DNA of 64,000 nt, taken from an uncultured Candidatus Saccharibacteria bacterium (GTDB lineage: Bacteria; Patescibacteriota; Minisyncoccia; UBA9983). The DNA lies in contig CAYTKF010000001.1 of the NCBI GenBank assembly GCA_964438405.1, positions 18,860 through 82,859 on the forward strand. The letters run 5' to 3'. Position 1 is the stretch's first letter. The number at the start of each line of letters is the position of its first letter. Positions 10,874-56,388 of the stretch are shown one piece after another. The position numbers and the translations under genes are program-made. The notes under the pieces were generated by a model, which did not search any database, was not told the origin of the DNA, and saw only the letters and a list, made by a program, of their open reading frames with translations.

Positions 10874-10917
10874 CTATTGTGAACAAATGGAACGATCGTG
10901 AAAAATGGTAACAATAG
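10874..10917. promoter_or_regulatory. 44-bp quasi-palindrome centred exactly on CGATCG (downstream-flank copy for PaaX-like gene 1)
   Basis: ctattgtgaacaaatggaaCGATCGtgaaaaatggtaacaatag. Terminal ctattgt/acaatag are exact inverted repeats, with 19-nt arms on each side of CGATCG. Confidence 0.5.
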
Positions 10918-10930
10918 ATTAGTAATAGAT

Positions 10931-11593
10931 TTATTGTTTTATTATTGCGCTCTTGAGTAAATTCTTAAAATAATATAAAACTTTCTCATCAGTCATTTCT
11001 TTTACAAGAAATATTTTCACAAGGGGCTTTATATTAAAAAAATCTTTTAAGAATTCTATTTCTTCTATACAAGGGAAAGGATGAACCCAAACGCTTTTCT
11101 GACACTGATAAAAATTAAGATCTTCCAATTTATTTCTAAGCGAGTCTCTAATTTTTCTTTGGTTTTCCGGTATGTCAAAAATAACAAGCCGCCAATTTCC
11201 ATCCCAATTTTTTGGGACACTAATTTTTAATTCATCAAGGATAAACTTTTTAATTTTTTTCTTTCCATTTTCAGTAACAGTATAAATAAGACAATCTTCT
11301 TCTTCTTTTAAAAATTCCAAATTGTGTTTTTGTTTTAATTTATTAAAGGTATACCATATTTTTCTATATTCTTCGTAACTTTCTCTTTTTTGCCTTTGTC
11401 TTATTTTTTCTATTATTCCTAAAACGTTAGGGAAGGCGACGCCAAAGGTTAAAATTCCTCCGGTAGCTATTAATGCAAGGGTGGCATTAAGAGTAGTTTT
11501 GGCTTTAGAGTTTTCTTTTATTATCCTTAAAAGATACTTTTTAAGGTTTGGTTCTAGGGTTGTTTCAAATTTTATCGGTTTGTGTTTAGGCAT
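10931..11593 (-). CDS. PaaX-family transcriptional regulator-like protein (paralog 1)
   Basis: NWDGNWRLVIFDIPENQRKIRDSLRNKLEDLNFYQCQKSVWVHP parallels the WDGKW...LW.GFG...P core of PaaX. Paralogous to 48177..48734. Confidence 0.5.
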   Translation of the reverse strand: MPKHKPIKFETTLEPNLKKYLLRIIKENSKAKTTLNATLALIATGGILTFGVAFPNVLGIIEKIRQRQKRESYEEYRKIWYTFNKLKQKHNLEFLKEEEDCLIYTVTENGKKKIKKFILDELKISVPKNWDGNWRLVIFDIPENQRKIRDSLRNKLEDLNFYQCQKSVWVHPFPCIEEIEFLKDFFNIKPLVKIFLVKEMTDEKVLYYFKNLLKSAIIKQ

Positions 11594-11626: not shown

Positions 11627-11670
11627 GCATTGTGACCAAATGGAGCGGTCGTGAAAAATGGTAACAATAG
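11627..11670. promoter_or_regulatory. Second copy of the 44-bp element (41/44 identical), upstream flank of PaaX-like gene 1
   Basis: gcattgtgaccaaatggagcggtcgtgaaaaatggtaacaatag, in the same orientation as 10874..10917. Confidence 0.5.
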
Positions 11671-11726
11671 AAAGTGGATGAGAATAGAGTAGTTACGGAA
11701 AATAAGTTGTGATATAATTTATTTAC

Positions 11727-11951: not shown

Positions 11952-13282
11952 TTGAGTTTGATGTGGGAACGGGAGTGCCGTTGTATACACAAATATTATC
12001 ACCTTATCCATCAATATCTGATACTGATGAATGGGATGGACTAAAGTATGCTGATGGTAATTCTGATTGTGGTTTTAGCATCTCTAACTGTGGATGCGCC
12101 ATTACTTCTATCGTAATGGTTGCCAGAAGTTATAGAATAACAAATACCCAAGAACTTGATGTCAATCCAAAAGAAATAAACAACTGGCTTAATAGTGAAT
12201 CAGGAGGATATGTAAATGGAGGTGTTAATTGGATTGCAGCCGCAAAATACACGGGCTGGAGAATCAAGTACGAAAAAAGCGACAAAACTACAAACAACTA
12301 CGTGCTTTTAGATGAAAAACTTAATAACAACCAGCCAGTTATTGCCAAAGCCAATCGTGGAAGAGGTGGCATTAGCCGCGAACATTTCTTTGTAATAGAT
12401 AAAAAATTAGCTTCCACTTATTCTGTTAAAGACCCTGCCTGGTATAATACCAAAATATTAAACGAAGGTTTTAATAGTGACATTCAGCACGTCAGAAATT
12501 ACGATAACGGCTTTGACGGCTTGAGAATTTACAAGAAAGGAGACGGAATTGCCCAAAAAGCCATGACCCTTGTTCTTGGTTCTCCGGCAGAACTTTTAAT
12601 AACCGATTCTTTTGGTAATAAACTTGGCAAAGACCAAAACGGCGTAGAATATAACCAGATATCCAACGGCTGGTATTTTGAGGAAGGGTTTGATGATCCC
12701 ACGGGAGAAAATCCGCCCTCTCAACATAAAAATAAAATCATTCAAATACTGGAGCCTACCGATGGTCAATATGATATCCAGATTATAGGCACCGGTGCAG
12801 GAAATTATTCTCTTAACTCAGATATTTACGATTCAGACGGCAATTCTCATTTCCAGACAATAACCGGCAACACCCAGCCGAATCTTATAACCGATTATTC
12901 TCTTAATTTAACCAATGGCAAGCCCGGAGAAATTGTTATTCCTGTCTCAATTGATATCAAGCCCGGCACTTACCCTAACAGCATTAATCTGGGCTCTAAT
13001 GGCGTTATTCCTGTGGCAATTTTTGGTTCTGCGGCGCTTGATGTTAAAAATATTAATATTCCTACAATTAGACTTGGCAGTGCTTCTGTTAAACTTAAGG
13101 GTAATGGGCAATCCGTTTTTAACTACTCTGACTTAAACACAGACGGTTTTATTGATGTTGTTGTAAAAATATCCACCGAAACATTTAGTTTGTCATCAAC
13201 TGACATTACTACAAACCTTGAAGGTAAATTACAAAATGGAATAACCATCAGGGGTTCTGATTCCGTACGAATTGTACCATGA
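11948..13282 (+). CDS. Papain-like (C39-like) cysteine peptidase domain protein with a C-terminal beta-rich domain
   Basis: NCGCAITSIVM catalytic-Cys context and downstream REHFFVID (His) resemble the C39/papain-like fold. It has no signal peptide of its own. Confidence 0.4.
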   Translation: MIEFDVGTGVPLYTQILSPYPSISDTDEWDGLKYADGNSDCGFSISNCGCAITSIVMVARSYRITNTQELDVNPKEINNWLNSESGGYVNGGVNWIAAAKYTGWRIKYEKSDKTTNNYVLLDEKLNNNQPVIAKANRGRGGISREHFFVIDKKLASTYSVKDPAWYNTKILNEGFNSDIQHVRNYDNGFDGLRIYKKGDGIAQKAMTLVLGSPAELLITDSFGNKLGKDQNGVEYNQISNGWYFEEGFDDPTGENPPSQHKNKIIQILEPTDGQYDIQIIGTGAGNYSLNSDIYDSDGNSHFQTITGNTQPNLITDYSLNLTNGKPGEIVIPVSIDIKPGTYPNSINLGSNGVIPVAIFGSAALDVKNINIPTIRLGSASVKLKGNGQSVFNYSDLNTDGFIDVVVKISTETFSLSSTDITTNLEGKLQNGITIRGSDSVRIVP

Positions 13283-14268
13283 GCAAAAAAATTAAAATTC
13301 TAATAATTTCAATTTTCTTAGTTTTTGCGGTCGCTATAGCTATTTTTTATTTCATAAAACCAACAAAATCAGGATGCTTAAGTGATAACAGTGTGACAAC
13401 TTACGAAAACGATAAAGATAATACTTATATTGTAGTGTCTGACAAAAAAACAGGACAAGAGATAAATCGTTTTCAAATCAAAAATATAATTACTGATCAT
13501 TATCATGGTCAAGAATTACATAAATGTAACTTTTATGTGATAAGACAATTTAATTACGATAGTAAAACAAGACGCAAAACACCAAATTACAGCGCCGAAT
13601 TATGGTCATATAATTATACCCAGAATGGCCTCTCAATTTTAACCTTTAGCAAAACAGACAATAATGGCAATTATCTATTATTTTTTAATGATGACTTCCG
13701 CATTTCTCCTGATGAGAAATATCTTGCTCTTGAAAAAGGTTATGCCGGCCAAGATGATTATTCTATTGTCATTAAAACTCTTTCAGATAAAAAAGATGCT
13801 TTCATAATATCTGCCAAAGAGCTTTCTCAAAAATATCCCGATATTGTCGGGAATTTCGGTCTTAAAGAATGGACAAAAGACGGCAGATATTTTTGGGGAA
13901 ATATTTTTGATGGAGCAGACGTGTTAGCTTTCTTTAGAATAGAAATCGGAACTTGGAAATGGGAAGTATTTGAGGCGCCAGTTGGAACAATGGGCGGAGA
14001 TGTCCTAAATCCCGAATTGGGATATGTTACATATGATGATGGTTCGCCGTGGACAGGATTTGCCGATTTAGACCAAGCGTATCGCGAACAATGGAAAAAA
14101 GAAGGTAAAATTGTTCATTTTTATCTTTATAACTTATTTACAAAAGAGAAAACTCTTTTGGCCACTTATGACGATCCCACCTATTTCACTAAACCCAAAT
14201 GGCTTTCTGACACTCAGCTTCAATACGAAATGCCGAACGGGGAAAAGAGGATTTATGAAATTAAATGA
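13279..14268 (+). CDS. Hypothetical membrane-anchored protein
   Basis: N-terminal TM segment ILIISIFLVFAVAIAIFYFI; 329 aa; no known motif. Confidence 0.4.
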   Translation: MSKKIKILIISIFLVFAVAIAIFYFIKPTKSGCLSDNSVTTYENDKDNTYIVVSDKKTGQEINRFQIKNIITDHYHGQELHKCNFYVIRQFNYDSKTRRKTPNYSAELWSYNYTQNGLSILTFSKTDNNGNYLLFFNDDFRISPDEKYLALEKGYAGQDDYSIVIKTLSDKKDAFIISAKELSQKYPDIVGNFGLKEWTKDGRYFWGNIFDGADVLAFFRIEIGTWKWEVFEAPVGTMGGDVLNPELGYVTYDDGSPWTGFADLDQAYREQWKKEGKIVHFYLYNLFTKEKTLLATYDDPTYFTKPKWLSDTQLQYEMPNGEKRIYEIK

Positions 14269-14290
14269 GTCTTTCATGGGGTTTAATCTT

Positions 14291-14311
14291 CCCCGAGGTT
14301 TAACCTCGGGG
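14291..14311 (+). terminator. Hairpin ccccgaggtt-t-aacctcgggg after the preceding CDS (no clean T-tract)
   Basis: Perfect 10-bp inverted repeat 23 nt after the stop codon. Confidence 0.35.
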
Positions 14312-14320
14312 AGTCTTAAG

Positions 14321-14384
14321 AAATCCTTGCTTCGTTTAAATTTTTGAAGTAGAGTTAATAATTATAAGTTAAACCATTAAACTT
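14321..14384 (+). promoter_or_regulatory. Conserved 64-nt leader/promoter region, copy A (upstream of S8 protease 1)
   Basis: aaatccttgcttcgtttaaatttttgaagtagagttaataattataagttaaaccattaaactt. About 85% identical to 16262..16324. Possible -35 ttgctt and -10 tagagt/tagtat. Confidence 0.5.
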
Positions 14385-16259
14385 ATGAAAAAAATACACA
14401 ACCATCTACTTGAACACAGCAAATGGTATAGTGATTGGCACAACTATTCACGCTGCTCAGTGGTGCACTGGGCTGTATTTGTTGTTGTTACTATGCTGCT
14501 TATGACCGGTACTTTATTGAGTATTCAGAAATTTGTTGTTTTAACAGAAAGTGAATCCAATATTGCCAGCGTTATAGTTCCCAGCTATAAGGGCGGTAAA
14601 GTCGGAGAAGCAGAAGACCATATTTTGGTAAAATTTAAAAAAACTTTGACTACCAAAGAACAAGAAAAAATACTTTCCAGAAACAATTTGAAAGAGAAAT
14701 CAGAAATTAAAGCCATCGGTGTAAAATTAATCTCTATCTCCGCCGATGATACTCCCCAAGAAGCAGTAGACAAATTGAAAGCCAAGGAAAAAGGCAATCT
14801 GGAATTTGTTGAAGTTGATGCTATTTTAGCTCCTGATTTAATACCAAATGATTCCTATTGGCCAAGCCAGTGGGACAAATCAAAGATCAACACTCCCTTA
14901 GCTTGGGATTCTAATACTGGCTCAAATACTGTAATTGTGGGTGTCGCGGATACAGGTGTTGATTGCACCCACGAAGATTTAACGGCCAATTGTGTTTCCG
15001 GTTGGAATTTTTATGATAACAATTCAAATGCTGCTGATGTTTATGGCCATGGGACTGCTGTTGCCGGAATTATTGGAGCTGCCGGCAATAATGCAAGGGG
15101 GGTAGCCGGAACAGTTTGGAATTCTAAAATTATGCCATTGCGGGTTAGCGGAACCAGTGGTTCCGCTACCTATTCGGCCATTGCCCAAGCTATAATTTAT
15201 GCAGCTGACCATGGAGTAAAAGTGGTGAACAACAGCTATCAATCGGGAGGCAGCGCCACAGTTAGGAGCGCTGCTCATTATTTGAAAAGTAAAGGAGGGC
15301 TTCTTATAGTAAGTGAGGGTAATTACGGCACTCTTACTAGCTACGACAATAGCCCGGACCTGATATCTGTCTCTGCAACTGACCCCAATGATGCTCTCTA
15401 TTCTTGGTCGTCTTATGGCAATGATGTGGACGTTTCTGCCCCGGGCTGCGGATATGCCACAGCAAACGGCGGAAGTTATAGAAGTTTTTGCGGCACTTCC
15501 AATTCTGCCCCGGAAGTGGCAGGTGCTCTGGCTCTTATCTTTTCGGTTAATTCTAGCTTAACTGCCGATCAAGCCCAAACTATCTTATTCAATTCCGCAA
15601 AAGATCTTGGCATTGCAGGTTGGGATATATATTTCGGATGGGGCAGAATAGATGTCGGGGCGGCCGTGGCATTGGCTAAGGGCGGAACTTCAAATGACAC
15701 TACTTCTCCTTCGGCACCAACCAATCTTTCCGCCTCTGCTCCGGATGAGACAAAAGTAAATTTGGCATGGACAGCTTCTATCGACAATACAGGAGTTGTC
15801 GGTTACCAAGTGTTTAGAGACAGCAATCAAATTGCCATTGTAAGCTCAACTAATTATACAGATACAAATGTTACTTCTGGTGCCAGTTATTCATACACAG
15901 TCAAGGCTTACGATGCTGTTGGTAATGTCTCTCCAAGTAGCAATACAGCTACAGTTACTGTGCCCACTGTTTCTGCCAAAGTCAGTATTTTGAATTATTC
16001 CGTAACAAAAAAGACTGCCACTACAGCCACTATCACTTGGACCACCAACATTCCCTCTACTGGTTTTGTCTCCTATAGTTCATCTTCTATAAACTTAAAT
16101 CTTTCTGCCACTGACGGAATTATCGGAACTACACATTCTGTAACAATTACTAATTTGACCAAATTCAGGATATATTATTACAAAATTACTGTTACCAGCG
16201 GAGATGGTTCCAGCACAGCTTCATCACCGGTTTCAAATTTCAGAACTAATAAAAAATAA
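14385..16259 (+). CDS. Secreted subtilisin-like serine protease (S8) with C-terminal fibronectin-III-like domains
   Basis: Catalytic triad contexts VGVADTGVD (Asp), HGTAVAGIIGA (His), GTSNSAPEVAG (Ser). Two FN3-like repeats at the C-terminus. Confidence 0.85.
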   Translation: MKKIHNHLLEHSKWYSDWHNYSRCSVVHWAVFVVVTMLLMTGTLLSIQKFVVLTESESNIASVIVPSYKGGKVGEAEDHILVKFKKTLTTKEQEKILSRNNLKEKSEIKAIGVKLISISADDTPQEAVDKLKAKEKGNLEFVEVDAILAPDLIPNDSYWPSQWDKSKINTPLAWDSNTGSNTVIVGVADTGVDCTHEDLTANCVSGWNFYDNNSNAADVYGHGTAVAGIIGAAGNNARGVAGTVWNSKIMPLRVSGTSGSATYSAIAQAIIYAADHGVKVVNNSYQSGGSATVRSAAHYLKSKGGLLIVSEGNYGTLTSYDNSPDLISVSATDPNDALYSWSSYGNDVDVSAPGCGYATANGGSYRSFCGTSNSAPEVAGALALIFSVNSSLTADQAQTILFNSAKDLGIAGWDIYFGWGRIDVGAAVALAKGGTSNDTTSPSAPTNLSASAPDETKVNLAWTASIDNTGVVGYQVFRDSNQIAIVSSTNYTDTNVTSGASYSYTVKAYDAVGNVSPSSNTATVTVPTVSAKVSILNYSVTKKTATTATITWTTNIPSTGFVSYSSSSINLNLSATDGIIGTTHSVTITNLTKFRIYYYKITVTSGDGSSTASSPVSNFRTNKK

Positions 16260-16261
16260 CC

Positions 16262-16324
16262 AAATCCTTGCTTCGTTTAAGTTTTTGAAGTAGTATTAAG
16301 AATTATAAGTTAAACTATTAAATT
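16262..16324 (+). promoter_or_regulatory. Conserved leader/promoter region, copy B (upstream of S8 protease 2)
   Basis: aaatccttgcttcgtttaagtttttgaagtagtattaagaattataagttaaactattaaatt. Confidence 0.5.
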
Positions 16325-17521
16325 ATGATGAAAAAATACATTGTTTTAGCCTCATTATTGGCCGTATTGGTCGCGGTTTTCTTTCTTGTGGGAACAGTAA
16401 GCGCTCGGGTGGCCATTGATAAAGGTGACTCGCATAAAAGAGTAATTGCTCACAGCGAAGAAGAAATAAGCAAGGCAGTTTCCTTGGGTTGCAGGATTGT
16501 AAGAGAGGCAAGGACGTTAAAAGCGCTTCGCTGTCCACGGGGAGTGGCTGAATCTTTATCGCTTAGTGAAGATGTAAAAGTTTTTGCTTTAGACGATGAG
16601 AAAGTCGGCGTCTTGAAAAGTCCTCAGCCCAGTGCAACGAGTGCCAGCGCCAACCAACAAATCGGCGCTGATATTGTTCATGCTTCCGGAAATACTGGCA
16701 TCGGCAGAAAAATAGTGGTTCTTGATACTGGTTATAACTATAATCATCCTGAATTAAGTTCCAGCTATCTTGACGGTAAAGACTTTGTTAACGACGATAA
16801 CGACCCAATGGATGACGATGGTCATGGCAGCCATGTATCAGGGATTATTACTGCTGATGGAATTAATCCCAAGGCTAAGGGCGTGGCTCCTGATGCAGGA
16901 GTTATCGCAGGCAAAGTACTCGACCAAAACGGCTCGGGCTATTTCAGCGATGTAGTGGCTGGTATTTACTGGGCAATAGACGGACCTGACGGTGTCTATG
17001 GCAATGCTGACGATTTTGGCGCCGATGCAATCAATCTTAGTTTGGGAACCTCTAGACCCTACACTTATAAAGGATTCTGTGACGGAGTTTTGCCTGATCT
17101 TACAAATGCCGTCAAATACGCAGTTGAAAGGAATGTAACTGTGGTGGTGGCTGCTGGGAACAATAGTAGTTCTGGGGTTTCTATTCCTGGTTGCATCAGC
17201 TACTCCACGACAGCTGGTGCTGTTGACAGTAGAGATAGAGTTGCCAGTTTTTCCAGCAAAGGTAATGCTTTAGATATCACTGCTCCTGGGGTAAGTATTT
17301 ATTCTACTGTTTTGGGAAGCGGTTACGCGAGTTGGAGCGGCACCAGTATGGCCACTCCAATGATAAGCGGCGTGGTGGGCCTTGTGAAAAATGCTCATCC
17401 AGCGTACACGCAGGCACAGATTGAAAGCAAACTCTTTAGCACTGCTAAAGATTTGGGCTCAAGAGGGAAAGATACAAGTTACGGCTGGGGCAGAGTAAGA
17501 GCAAATCTAGCTGTTAAGTAA
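16325..17521 (+). CDS. Secreted subtilisin-like serine protease (S8), second copy
   Basis: VVLDTGYNYNHPEL (Asp), HGSHVSGII (His), GTSMATPMISGV (Ser). N-terminal signal anchor. Confidence 0.85.
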   Translation: MMKKYIVLASLLAVLVAVFFLVGTVSARVAIDKGDSHKRVIAHSEEEISKAVSLGCRIVREARTLKALRCPRGVAESLSLSEDVKVFALDDEKVGVLKSPQPSATSASANQQIGADIVHASGNTGIGRKIVVLDTGYNYNHPELSSSYLDGKDFVNDDNDPMDDDGHGSHVSGIITADGINPKAKGVAPDAGVIAGKVLDQNGSGYFSDVVAGIYWAIDGPDGVYGNADDFGADAINLSLGTSRPYTYKGFCDGVLPDLTNAVKYAVERNVTVVVAAGNNSSSGVSIPGCISYSTTAGAVDSRDRVASFSSKGNALDITAPGVSIYSTVLGSGYASWSGTSMATPMISGVVGLVKNAHPAYTQAQIESKLFSTAKDLGSRGKDTSYGWGRVRANLAVK

Positions 17522-17539: not shown

Positions 17540-17570
17540 AGGGCGTCCGTTAAAAGGGGACGCTCTTTTC
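17540..17570 (+). terminator. Rho-independent terminator after S8 protease 2
   Basis: agggcgtcc-gttaaaagg-ggacgctct followed by tttc. Confidence 0.55.
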
Positions 17571-17834
17571 GTATTTAAGAAAAATATTAAGGACATATAA
17601 AAGACATCATTTTTGACAGAAAATTAAATCTGTTTTTTAACAGTTTTCAACATTTGACAAAAAATTTCCTGTGAGTAGTTTGAGATATATGATGTCCAAT
17701 ACATTTTGGGCAGTAAAATATGGTCAATTAAACGGCCGGGTTCGCGGTTTTTGTGTGGATTCGGTTTTTTTATTTGGAAAAAATAAGGGTCGAACCATTA
17801 AAAGTAAAAAGTAAAAAATTCAATTAAAAAAATT

Positions 17835-18968
17835 ATGAAAAAAATAATAATAATTTTAGGCGGACTGGCATTAGCGTTTGCTTTTGCTACTTCAGTTTCA
17901 GCCGCAACTCCGAATTGGGACATAACAGGAACATGGACATTCAATGATATTTGGTTAGGAACACCCTATGTTCACACAATGACAATTGATTCGTTTAACC
18001 CAGTTACAGGTGAATTTTCAGGGACTGGCTATTATAACTCTAATACAGCTCTTACGTGGAATGTGAATGGAATAGAAAGCGGAAACGATATCACATTATT
18101 CCATTTGCTGGTTATGGCAGTGGCCCCAGGTGTCACTATTGACGGCACAGGCACTATTAATTCATCGGGCACATTTATGAGTGGAACAGGATATCAGTCA
18201 AACCTTCCTGGAGGCGACCCAAATATTGAATGGACAGCGGTGGGAACAGCGACTCTAACAGATAATGATGGTGACGGAGTATTAAACGAAGACGACATTT
18301 GTCCTAATACGACCGCTGACGGGCCTTGGGAAAGTGAAAAAGGTTGGGGGACAAATAGGTGGCAAGTACAAGATAACTGGATGTGGTATCAGAACAAACC
18401 AGCTGGAAAGGGAGTCTATAACCCAACCGCTCTTCACCCAATAGATTACACTTATGGCTGCAACGGCCACCAAATTATCGAAATGCTCAATGGCGTAATG
18501 AACGGCCACTTGAAGTTCGGATTAAGTTCTAGTGTGCTTGATGAATTCCATCTTGATTTGAATGATGGTGTATTGGATGGCAGATATTTTATCGAAACCG
18601 TTACCGTACCAGCCAGCAAATCAACAGATACGCTATCTGCTAATTTTTTAGCGTCGGGAATTAACTATATTCTTAAAGCACGAGGAACAGCTAACGCTGG
18701 TGATAATATTGAATTTGACGCAAAATACAGTTTCCGTACTGGTTCAAGCGTGACATGGACAGATTCTGTATCTAATTATGAGGGTTACGGACCTACGCTT
18801 TTGGATTTGTTTTACAATGGCTCAACACCGTGGGGAGTTTTTAATTTTTCTCATGAGTATGAAGCGGCCGTAACAGGAACCGGAGCAATTGCATCTTTCA
18901 GAATCTACGATGTTTATTATCCGAACAATACAGGTAATTTATATGTAGATATTTATGCCGAGCTGTAG
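17835..18968 (+). CDS. Secreted hypothetical protein with a Ca-binding-like DNDGDGVLNEDD motif
   Basis: Signal peptide LGGLALAFAFATSVSAATP. DxDxDG motif resembles thrombospondin type 3 / calcium-binding repeats. Confidence 0.45.
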   Translation: MKKIIIILGGLALAFAFATSVSAATPNWDITGTWTFNDIWLGTPYVHTMTIDSFNPVTGEFSGTGYYNSNTALTWNVNGIESGNDITLFHLLVMAVAPGVTIDGTGTINSSGTFMSGTGYQSNLPGGDPNIEWTAVGTATLTDNDGDGVLNEDDICPNTTADGPWESEKGWGTNRWQVQDNWMWYQNKPAGKGVYNPTALHPIDYTYGCNGHQIIEMLNGVMNGHLKFGLSSSVLDEFHLDLNDGVLDGRYFIETVTVPASKSTDTLSANFLASGINYILKARGTANAGDNIEFDAKYSFRTGSSVTWTDSVSNYEGYGPTLLDLFYNGSTPWGVFNFSHEYEAAVTGTGAIASFRIYDVYYPNNTGNLYVDIYAEL

Positions 18969-19770: not shown

Positions 19771-19834
19771 GACTAACATGATTTTTGACATTTGACAAAA
19801 GACTGAAAATGCTTAGTTTATAATAATAAGGCTT

Positions 19835-48066: not shown

Positions 48067-48101
48067 TTATAATCAAAAACAGAAATTAAAAAAATAAAAA
48101 A

Positions 48102-48139
48102 TTAACGTATTCACAACCGATCGGTCGCCAATGCGTTAA
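48102..48139. promoter_or_regulatory. 38-bp quasi-palindrome centred exactly on CGATCG (upstream flank of PaaX-like gene 2)
   Basis: ttaacgtattcacaacCGATCGgtcgccaatgcgttaa. ttaacg/cgttaa termini are exact inverted repeats, with 16-nt arms. Confidence 0.5.
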
Positions 48140-48176
48140 TTTAATGTTAAGATATAATTAAGAATAAAATATCATT

Positions 48177-48734
48177 ATGGCTATAAAAATAAAAAGCGAA
48201 ACGAAACAAAAAATTCTACTTTTGCTTTTGGCGGGTTTGGCGTTAGGAATGTCAAAAACACCCAAAAGATATTTTAAGGTACTGAAAACTATTCCCAAAG
48301 AATGGAAAGATATAAAAAGAAGACAATTATTGGATGCTGTCCGCGAATTTTATAACAATAGAATCGTTGATTATAAAGAACTAAATGATGGCACAGTAGA
48401 AGTTGTCTTAACAAAAGAGGGAAGAAAGAGAGCGTTAATTTTTAAAATTGACGAAATGGAAATTAAAAAACCAGATAAGTGGGATGGCAAATGGAGAATA
48501 GTTATTTTTGATATTCCGGAAAAGAAGAGGGCAGCCAGATTTGCATTAAGAAACAAACTTAAAGATCTTGGTTTTAAAGAATTACAGAAAAGCGTTTTTG
48601 TTCATCCTTACGAATGCGAGGATGAAATTGATTTTATTGTAGAAGTATTTGAAATTAGACCCTATGTAAAATTCTTAAGAACAGATTCTTTTACAAATGA
48701 TGAACAATTTAAATTAAAATTTAAGATTTATTAA
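48177..48734 (+). CDS. PaaX-family transcriptional regulator-like protein (paralog 2)
   Basis: KWDGKWRIVIFDIPEKKRAARFALRNKLKDLGFKELQKSVFVHPYE. N-terminal wHTH-like segment KQKILLLLLAGLALG. Confidence 0.5.
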   Translation: MAIKIKSETKQKILLLLLAGLALGMSKTPKRYFKVLKTIPKEWKDIKRRQLLDAVREFYNNRIVDYKELNDGTVEVVLTKEGRKRALIFKIDEMEIKKPDKWDGKWRIVIFDIPEKKRAARFALRNKLKDLGFKELQKSVFVHPYECEDEIDFIVEVFEIRPYVKFLRTDSFTNDEQFKLKFKIY

Positions 48735-48762
48735 AAAAATATTAAAAACATATTTAATAAAA

Positions 48763-48800
48763 TTTACGTGTTTGTGGCCGATCGGTCACAGGTGCGTTAA
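48763..48800. promoter_or_regulatory. Second copy of the 38-bp CGATCG-centred palindrome (downstream flank of PaaX-like gene 2)
   Basis: tttacgtgtttgtggcCGATCGgtcacaggtgcgttaa. Inner tgtggccgatcggtcaca is a 16/18 palindrome. Confidence 0.5.
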
Positions 48801-48874
48801 TTTTAAAAATTAAATTAGAACTTAAAAAGTTGATAAGTTTTGTTTAAAGTCTTTAAATAATATATAATATCAAT

Positions 48875-55048: not shown

Positions 55049-55165
55049 ATGAAGGTTAAGGCGTCAATTAAAAAAATTTGCAGGGATTGCAAGATGGTCA
55101 AACGCAGGGGCTGTATTTATGTCATCTGCAAAAAAAATCCCAAGCATAAACAAAGACAGGGATAA
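55049..55165 (+). CDS. rpmJ: 50S ribosomal protein L36
   Basis: [38 protein letters not shown]; C-x2-C...C-x4-H zinc ribbon. Not in the ORF track because under 60 aa. Confidence 0.8.
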
Positions 55166-55373
55166 TAATGGCTTGGCCCACGATTTGGAGCCAAAGGCGA
55201 ACAAATTGTGGTTGCCAAACATTACCCCGCCCTCTCTTCTGTTATTTTTATCAAAGAGGACGGAATAAAAATTATGAAATATTTTGAAAAATTAAAAGTA
55301 AAAAATAAAAATGAGAGGGGCGGGGTGCTCAATTTTATAATTGCTCACTTCGCTCGCAAATAAAATTGGCATG
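55165..55373 (+). repeat. 209-bp intergenic element, copy 1 (rpmJ stop to rpsM start), containing a 101-nt stem-loop and a 29-codon sORF
   Basis: Identical to 55748..55956 by visual alignment over all 209 nt. Arms ccccgccctctc (55225) and gagaggggcgggg (55313). sORF 55274..55363 MKYFEKLKVKNKNERGGVLNFIIAHFARK with RBS aaagagga. Confidence 0.8.
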
Positions 55374-55751
55374 CGTATCGCTGGAACAAACATACCGGAT
55401 AATAAAAGACTGGAGATTGCATTAACCTATGTTTTTGGCATTGGCAGAACGCGGGCAAAAGAAATTTTAAAAGGCGCGCAAATTTCCATAGACAAAAAAG
55501 CAAAAGATTTATCTGAAAAAGAATCTAATTCTATCAGGGAATTTGTGGAAAAATATAAAATAGAAGAAGAATTGCGCAGAGAAATTTCCTCTAATATCAA
55601 AAGGTTAAAAGAAATTAAGGCCTACCGCGGTATGCGCCATTCAAGAAAACTGCCTGTGCGCGGACAAAGAACCAAAACTAATTCCCGCACAAACAGAGGC
55701 AATGTCAGAGTAACCATGGGCAGTGGAAGAAGGAAATTGGAAAAGACATAA
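55371..55751 (+). CDS. rpsM: 30S ribosomal protein S13
   Basis: MRIAGTNIPDNKRLEIALTYVFGIGRTRAKEIL...C-terminal RGQRTKTNSRTNRG. Start is the ATG at the end of the repeat; the tracked N-extension MLTSLANKIG is repeat-encoded. Confidence 0.85.
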   Translation: MRIAGTNIPDNKRLEIALTYVFGIGRTRAKEILKGAQISIDKKAKDLSEKESNSIREFVEKYKIEEELRREISSNIKRLKEIKAYRGMRHSRKLPVRGQRTKTNSRTNRGNVRVTMGSGRRKLEKT

Positions 55752-55956
55752 TGGCTTGGCCCACGATTTGGAGCCAAAGGCGAACAAATTGTGGTTGCCA
55801 AACATTACCCCGCCCTCTCTTCTGTTATTTTTATCAAAGAGGACGGAATAAAAATTATGAAATATTTTGAAAAATTAAAAGTAAAAAATAAAAATGAGAG
55901 GGGCGGGGTGCTCAATTTTATAATTGCTCACTTCGCTCGCAAATAAAATTGGCATG
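55748..55956 (+). repeat. 209-bp intergenic element, copy 2 (rpsM stop to rpsK start)
   Basis: Perfect copy of 55165..55373; sORF copy at 55857..55946. Confidence 0.8.
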
Positions 55957-56388
55957 GGTAAAAAACGAATTATAACAAAAGAGGGAGCGGTCGTTGACCA
56001 GGAGCTTAAGGCCCGGTCGCTCAGCAAGATGCCGAAGAAAAAAATCACCAGCGCTGTTTTAAATGTGCAGTCAACTTTTAATAATACTCTCATCAGCCTC
56101 TCAGACAAAAAAGGCAATACCATAATGTGGTCATCAAGCGGAGCACTGGGATTCAAGGGCGCGAAAAAAGGCACCCCTTTTGCCGCATCAAAAGTTGCTG
56201 AACTTCTGGCTGACAAAGCAAAGACAATGGGAATTAAAGATATTGATGTTGTTATTAAGGGCGTTGGGGCTGGCAGAGAGTCGGCTGTCAGAACCTTCAG
56301 TAGCCGGGGTTTTGAAATAAATCTTATCCGCGACGAAACCCCGATTCCGCATAACGGCCCCAAACCGCCCAAACCACGCAGGGTATAA
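55954..56388 (+). CDS. rpsK: 30S ribosomal protein S11
   Basis: VLNVQSTFNNTLISLSDKKGNTIMWSSSGALGFKGAKKGTPFAA...C-terminal PHNGPKPPKPRRV. Confidence 0.85.
   Translation: MGKKRIITKEGAVVDQELKARSLSKMPKKKITSAVLNVQSTFNNTLISLSDKKGNTIMWSSSGALGFKGAKKGTPFAASKVAELLADKAKTMGIKDIDVVIKGVGAGRESAVRTFSSRGFEINLIRDETPIPHNGPKPPKPRRV

Follow-up and report, generated by a model that had tools for sequence, protein, structure and literature searches.

Two genes for subtilisin-like proteases of the Peptidase_S8 family, here called S8_1 and S8_2, follow each other in the same orientation on a stretch of 64,000 nucleotides (nt) of contig CAYTKF010000001.1 (GenBank assembly GCA_964438405.1), to which we refer as the window. 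An earlier note on this DNA had pointed to a shared block of about 64 nt before the two start codons, raising the question of whether this block is a regulatory signal maintained by selection or the trace of a copying event. We found the repeat exactly where the note had placed it, and our analysis indicates that it is real and specific to this lineage, and that it is plausibly a duplicated promoter-leader, an ordinary case of promoter duplication. Aligned without gaps, 56 of the 61 positions of 14321-14381 and 16262-16322 are identical (92%), so the note was right about the high similarity and too low in its figure of about 85%. A gapped alignment, with a 1-nt deletion and a 2-nt insertion, extends over 80 columns (72/80 identical, 90%); it takes in the ATG together with the Lys-Lys codons and reaches 14398 and 16340. 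In all, the two copies differ by 5 substitutions and 2 indels. The identity is evenly high over the entire block and not restricted to short islands, and it breaks off sharply at both ends: in each of the adjoining 60-nt flanks the identity is 25%, no more than expected at random. The intergenic regions that hold the copies measure 116 nt before S8_1 (14269-14384) and 65 nt before S8_2 (16260-16324), and S8_2 has a second in-frame ATG at 16328.

Neither chance nor a faulty assembly accounts for the repeat. For its core patterns, shuffled controls gave an expectation of 0.00-0.07 matches, and among the 46 upstream regions compared within the window, no other pair had more than 39/61 identical positions, the median being 28/61; on these two grounds a chance origin of the similarity is excluded. 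The structure of the repeat is identical in three assemblies, namely the window, an ENA contig (L001) and the NCBI assembly GCA_007376735.1 (L002), the latter two being of the same strain as the window at 99.98% identity. This agreement, together with the 5 substitutions and 2 indels between the copies, rules out an assembly artefact.

To characterize what the block may encode, candidate promoters were scored with a simple sigma-70 position weight matrix (PWM). We found that the top-scoring promoter model is identical in both copies (Table 1). The two -10 hexamers differ only at positions 4 and 5, with T1, A2 and T6 kept, and the substitutions within the promoter model hit the least critical -10 positions. 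From this model, transcription is predicted to start near 14362 and 16303, yielding an AU-rich leader of about 22 nt in which no Shine-Dalgarno motif is present. Two other candidates were rejected: the -10 TATAAG at 14363-14368 lacks a suitable -35 at a distance of 16-18 nt, and TTTAAA-16-AATAAT is lost in copy 2. As to the layout of the transcription unit, copy 1 begins 8 nt past a GC-rich hairpin that marks its left edge and that is probably a transcript end or a stabiliser. Between S8_1 and S8_2, the fold of 16180-16265 was no better than that of shuffled sequences, and a hairpin resembling an intrinsic terminator lies just past S8_2.

Table 1. Positions in the window of the two repeat copies, the proteases they precede, and the associated promoter models and hairpins (aa, amino acids)
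Feature	Position	Strand	Description
Copy 1 of the repeat	14321..14398	+	Non-coding part 14321-14384 (64 nt), up to the S8_1 ATG; match goes on through ATG AAA AAA ATA CA
Copy 2 of the repeat	16262..16340	+	Non-coding part 16262-16324 (63 nt), from 2 nt past the S8_1 stop codon to the first S8_2 ATG
Best promoter model, copy 1	14327..14355	+	-35 TTGCTT (14327-14332), 17-nt spacer, -10 TAGAGT (14350-14355); PWM 7.7
Best promoter model, copy 2	16268..16296	+	-35 TTGCTT (16268-16273), 17-nt spacer, -10 TAGTAT (16291-16296); PWM 7.5
S8_1, 624 aa	14385..16259	+	N-terminal hydrophobic anchor, fervidolysin-like prodomain, Peptidase_S8, fn3, Pur_ac_phosph_N-like domain
S8_2, 398 aa	16325..17521	+	Signal peptide and Peptidase_S8
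GC-rich hairpin TCCCCGAGG-TTTAA-CCTCGGGGA	14290..14312	+	After upstream gene 13279-14268; -22 kcal/mol, z -3.5; no U-tract
Hairpin resembling an intrinsic terminator	17540..17576	+	9-bp stem 17540-17548 / 17558-17566, then TTTTCGTATTT; -20.5 kcal/mol, z -3.6

The two proteases behind this shared leader are only distantly related, as the note had claimed: they are 31% identical over 279 residues of the catalytic domain. Comparing the coding sequences by blastn and megablast returned only chance words of 11-12 nt, and the upstream neighbours (13279-14320 against 15220-16261) gave no match beyond 11-nt words. The note had also called both proteases secreted, a description that, judged by eye, suits S8_2, whose N-terminus is a classical signal peptide (MMKKYIVLASLLAVLVAVFFLVGTVSA), better than S8_1, where 28 polar residues are followed by a single hydrophobic helix that looks more like a membrane anchor than a signal peptide. 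Each protease has much closer relatives elsewhere. Dozens of Patescibacteria proteins belong to the S8_2 family at 65-88% identity, and S8_1 has orthologues of the same domain order at up to 61%. Since the two are 31% identical to each other against 65-88% (S8_2) and up to 61% (S8_1) to these orthologues, they are ancient paralogues that split long before this species arose. Their N-termini are also native to their families, the orthologues of S8_1 beginning with MNKIH.. and those of S8_2 with MNFKKYL...

Several side observations concern the same genes. Members of the S8_2 family (P0001-P0120; loci L003-L008, L083-L085, L120 and L126-L131) occur at 65-88% identity across many Patescibacteria lineages and in metagenome-assembled genomes (MAGs) labelled as DPANN or other archaea, and despite this unusual protein conservation the gene neighbourhood differs nearly everywhere, which hints at frequent transfer or strong constraint. 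In the NCBI assembly, S8_1 has 3 extra nt (625 instead of 624 aa), and 61 nt corresponding to 18286-18346 are missing (at its 7981/7982), splitting the 377-aa open reading frame (ORF) 17835-18968 into ORFs of 182 and 156 aa; these differences reflect either strain heterogeneity or an assembly difference.

We then asked what stands upstream of the orthologues in other Patescibacteria. The orthologues of S8_1 and S8_2 are not adjacent to each other in related genomes: those of S8_2 have as neighbours a CLIPPER-domain gene (L083), DivIC/RF-1 genes (L084, L126-L130) or ABC-transporter genes (L085), and that of S8_1 (L086/L087) adjoins a deaminase gene. The C39-like gene and the 329-aa gene that lie upstream of S8_1 are kept as a pair in relatives, but other genes, and no S8 gene, come next there. 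Nothing that could be aligned to the 64-mer was found upstream of the orthologues, either at the loci of S8_2 (L083, L084, L085, L126-L131) or at that of S8_1 (L086/L087). Their upstream regions have promoters of their own, TTGAC-N17-TAAACT or TATAAT, and even S8_2 orthologues at 79-86% identity are preceded by unrelated DNA; raised local-alignment scores there stem from AT-rich runs and the ATG-AAAAAA start and not from homology. The closest relative of S8_2 (88%, L120) is truncated short of its 5' end; a PaaX_M gene lies 3' of this homologue. Homologues of the upstream gene revealed no relative with conserved synteny, and in a protein-based scan of genome contigs the matches listed were mostly distant S8 genes. 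Thus, as far as can be seen in the DNA searched, the repeat block is private to this lineage.

Further copies were sought within the source genome and beyond it. Within the source genome the search covered about 70 kb, and with a genome estimated at 0.6-1 Mb, a size typical for the group and not measured, at least 90% lies outside this range. In the 64-kb window, neither blastn-short nor pattern searches revealed a third copy, including upstream of other genes for exported proteins, and none was present in about 6 kb of extra flank taken from same-species contigs of other assemblies. A 22-base core pattern of the repeat had 0 matches in the GTDB representative genomes, and searches with a 19-mer in JGI metagenomes and a 16-mer in IMG/VR gave only chance matches of seed length that did not extend. 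Given these results and the orthologues that lack the leader, the note's proposal of a regulon of secreted proteases is so far unsupported.

Based on these findings, we favour with moderate confidence the explanation that a promoter with a short AU-rich leader was copied in this lineage alone and thereby came to precede two already diverged S8 genes. According to this scheme, in a Parcubacteria lineage (of the same species as the MAG 'Parcubacteria group bacterium Athens0714_24') some 64-78 nt of upstream DNA would have been copied and would now stand before the two adjacent genes. The block would most likely act as a modest promoter of the sigma-70 type (TTGCTT-17-TAGAGT/TAGTAT) followed by the short leader, in a unit composed of hairpin, P1-leader-S8_1, P2-leader-S8_2 and terminator, in which S8_2 would be read both via read-through from P1 and from its own internal promoter P2, and the signals that start transcription and translation would be common to both genes. 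That the copies are so similar would reflect a recent common origin and not long-term selection. The right-hand junction lies in a microhomology of 12-13 nt, ATG AAA AAA (A)TAC, native to the 5' ends of both genes; because both N-termini are native to their families, the Lys-Lys codons are pre-existing microhomology, and the 2-nt difference at this junction restores the S8_2 frame. The DNA itself shows the repeat with its sharp edges, its absence before the orthologues, and the flanking hairpin and terminator; from it we infer that the block is an active promoter, where transcripts begin, and how and in which direction the block was copied. The note had regarded the leader as maintained; the uniform identity over the block and the unrelated DNA upstream of the orthologues speak against this, and recent copying accounts for the identity without selection.

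A number of points weigh against our explanation. The note's reading of the block as a promoter with 5' untranslated region (UTR) draws strength from its position between a hairpin or stop codon and a start codon and from the conserved pair of sigma-70-like hexamers, but the match to the promoter consensus is moderate, only 7/12 positions. By PWM score, the two models rank near the 90th percentile of windows taken from coding sequence and fall short of the average for other intergenic regions (8.4), and a consensus promoter scan did not list TTGCTT-17-TAGAGT/TAGTAT. Many promoters of the window have a TATAAT 6-9 nt before the ATG, a pattern from which the leader departs. On the minus strand, a perfect TATAAT is present in each of the copies, and in copy 1 it outscores the plus-strand model. 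A divergence of about 8-10% is not "very recent", so some constraint on the block is possible, and the count of two copies depends on about 70 kb of the estimated genome.

The minus-strand hexamer suggests a different reading, in which the conserved ATTATA (14361-14366 and 16302-16307) is the TATAAT of an antisense or divergent promoter that directs a short leftward non-coding transcript; the transcript from copy 2 would be antisense to the S8_1 3' end. In copy 1, TTCATA-17-TATAAT scores 10.2 and agrees with the consensus at 10/12 positions, the best consensus match in the region, and the TATAAT is present in both copies. We nevertheless regard this reading as highly improbable: in copy 2 the -35 and the spacing are lost and the score falls to 6.2, no minus-strand ORF lies downstream, and hexamers like TATAAT are common in DNA of 78% A+T. 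The possibility that an entire S8 gene and its promoter were long ago duplicated in tandem, leaving the block as a relic once the coding parts, but not the upstream part, had diverged, is suggested by two adjacent, co-directional genes of the same Pfam family. It has almost no probability, given the 31% identity and different architectures of the proteins, the far closer orthologues of each gene elsewhere (61-88%), where the pair is unlinked, and the fact that a non-coding segment cannot hold 92% over such a span with flanks at 25%; the similarity ends in steps, with no gradual decay. A decaying tail of such a duplication was the very scenario that the earlier note had set beforehand as its refutation, and the contrast of 31% with 61-88% identity, together with the abrupt edges, rules it out.

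Two further explanations carry more weight, and they concern the origin and the function of the block. It is rather unlikely, in our estimate, that the repeat is a neutral by-product of gene insertion, whereby S8_1 (or S8_2) arrived by recombination, for instance through a single crossover of a circular intermediate, and the direct repeats around S8_1 are the duplicated junction, in which case promoter activity would be required of one copy at most. The order repeat, S8_1, repeat, S8_2, with copy 2 starting 2 nt past the S8_1 stop codon, fits such an event, as does the tandem arrangement, which is unique to this lineage, and a repeat-gene-repeat-gene layout recurs around rpsM, where a block of about 210 nt, described below, is present in two 100% identical copies. 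However, gene insertion would account for the origin and not for the function of the block, being in this respect compatible with promoter copying; S8_1 would still require a promoter past the upstream hairpin, and its surroundings contain no integrase, transposase or terminal inverted repeats. It is also unlikely that the block is a selectively kept regulatory signal, either a transcription-factor operator or a 5'-UTR RNA element, which co-regulates exported hydrolases and has more copies elsewhere in the genome. The position directly upstream of two exported proteases would suit such a signal, and so would the weak inverted repeat CTTC-N12-GAAG between the hexamers and the weak hairpin over the AUG, which are found in both copies; moreover, other neighbouring genes of the window share shorter upstream motifs (D15, D16, D18), and the copy search took in only a small part of the genome. 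Against it stand the lack of a third copy in the 64 kb and its flanks, the orthologues without the leader, and an identity that is uniform instead of gathered in islands. Read as an operator (CTTCG..TGAAG), the inverted repeat matches at only 5/11 positions, and we dismissed it as evidence. The RNA element that the note had envisaged found no support either. Each copy can form two weak hairpins, one of them over the AUG; the folds have z -2.2 and -1.9, and the consensus fold of -6.6 kcal/mol contains 0 compensatory pairs, a count for which two near-identical sequences offer no statistical power. In Rfam the leader had no match at the gathering score, and relaxing the threshold to E-values of up to 5 brought up nothing but eukaryotic or viral families of no relevance.

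Internal promoters within operons are a general feature of bacterial gene organisation. Copy 2 resembles them in that it lies between co-directional genes without a terminator and would add a second start for the distal gene, but its sequence is not independent, since it nearly duplicates the first promoter together with the leader and the start-codon context. With REP/REPIN elements (repetitive extragenic palindromes) or elements like MITEs (miniature inverted-repeat transposable elements) the S8 leader shares that it is repeated non-coding DNA between genes. It differs from them in having two copies in all the sequence searched, no terminal inverted repeats (its ends AAATCCTTGC and TTAAACTT are not complementary) and no strong palindrome, and in being AT-rich, weakly structured and directly abutting the start codon. 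The closest parallel is offered by the putative mobile promoters (PMPs) of Matus-Garcia, Nijveen and van Passel (NAR 2012, PMC3488235), defined as upstream blocks of >50 nt and >=80% identity that precede, in one genome, genes whose coding sequences do not align. PMPs were found in 1043/1362 genomes, two-member families average about 92% identity, and small families were ascribed to duplication by homologous or non-homologous recombination and not to transposition (PMC3488235). The S8 leader pair agrees with PMPs in all three alignment properties, being >50 nt long at >=80% identity and having coding sequences and upstream neighbours that do not align, and as a two-member family at about 92% it equals the doublet average of that study (PMC3488235). 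It differs in that the S8 genes are distant paralogues of one Pfam family and immediate neighbours, which makes co-expression of related functions plausible. In addition, the intergenic regions of 116 and 65 nt are shorter than the 150-nt filter of the published pipeline, so the pair would not enter its dataset, and the host is an uncultured bacterium of the candidate phyla radiation (CPR), a group outside that survey of complete genomes (PMC3488235).

Experiments have so far revealed almost nothing about the promoters and translation starts of CPR/Patescibacteria, and the S8 leader pair offers a compact natural candidate, with two variants that differ at 5-7 positions before two exported proteases. 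It would mean that promoter copying operates in reduced CPR genomes, and at present it defines neither a regulon nor a new kind of element. As to start signals in general, many starts in the window (e.g. 7525, 11593 on the minus strand, 11727, 29484, 45214, 48875, 60141 and 61308) have a -10 of the TATAAT type, often TGnTATAAT, ending 6-9 nt before the ATG, with no Shine-Dalgarno motif, and GGAGG-like sites occur at a few genes only (e.g. 28788 and 53691). This pattern suggests that leaderless or near-leaderless mRNAs may be widespread in this Parcubacteria genome. We also observed a shared promoter-like motif, TTGACA-16-TAGTTT, at 19782-19819 upstream of pilB (19835) and at 17644-17681 in the 313-nt spacer after S8_2. 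In the spacer (see also 17693-17766) it is followed by an ORF of about 40 codons and a strong terminator (17734-17766 plus a T-run), and a small protein or a small RNA may be expressed from this copy.

The window, which has a G+C content of 36-45% and carries type IV pilus, cell-division and ribosomal protein genes, contains other repeats as well. A 100% identical block of about 210 nt is found at 55165-55377 and 55748-55960, where it fills the junctions between rpmJ (L36) and rpsM (S13) and between rpsM and rpsK (S11), each copy reaching from a stop codon to the ATG that follows. It is to be seen as an insertion, because rpmJ, rpsM and rpsK lie 1 nt apart in a relative (L118). The block contains a perfect inverted repeat of 13 bp (CCCCGCCCTCTC.. 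/ ..GAGAGGGGCGGGG), TTTTATAAT about 35 nt before the ATG and an ORF of 51 codons; it folds strongly (-69 kcal/mol, z -5.5), and a search of Rfam gave no match for it. It is very doubtful that this block and the S8 leader are instances of one process in which non-coding cassettes are copied precisely between a stop codon and the next start. If they were, cassette copying would spread ready-made modules of promoter and translation start to neighbouring genes, and the genome would hold a family of cassettes abutting start codons, through which expression could be rewired in a very small genome.

The remaining repeats accompany regulator genes. A direct repeat of 43 nt (ATTGTGAMCAAATGGARCGRTCGTGAAAAATGGTAACAATAGA; 10876-10918 and 11629-11671, 93% identical) flanks a gene for a PaaX_M/Cas2-like regulator on the minus strand (10931-11593), and one of its copies is situated in a divergent promoter region that also serves the operon heading towards the S8 genes; the two copies may together form a pair of operators. 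A second PaaX_M/Cas2-like gene (48177-48734) is flanked by a palindromic repeat of 45 nt centred on CGATCG (48098-48142 and 48759-48803, 76% identical), which also precedes a murG-like gene (48875) and in which, by eye, several changes between the copies preserve the pairing of the hairpin arms. Both PaaX_M genes of the window are thus each bracketed by a repeat pair of their own.

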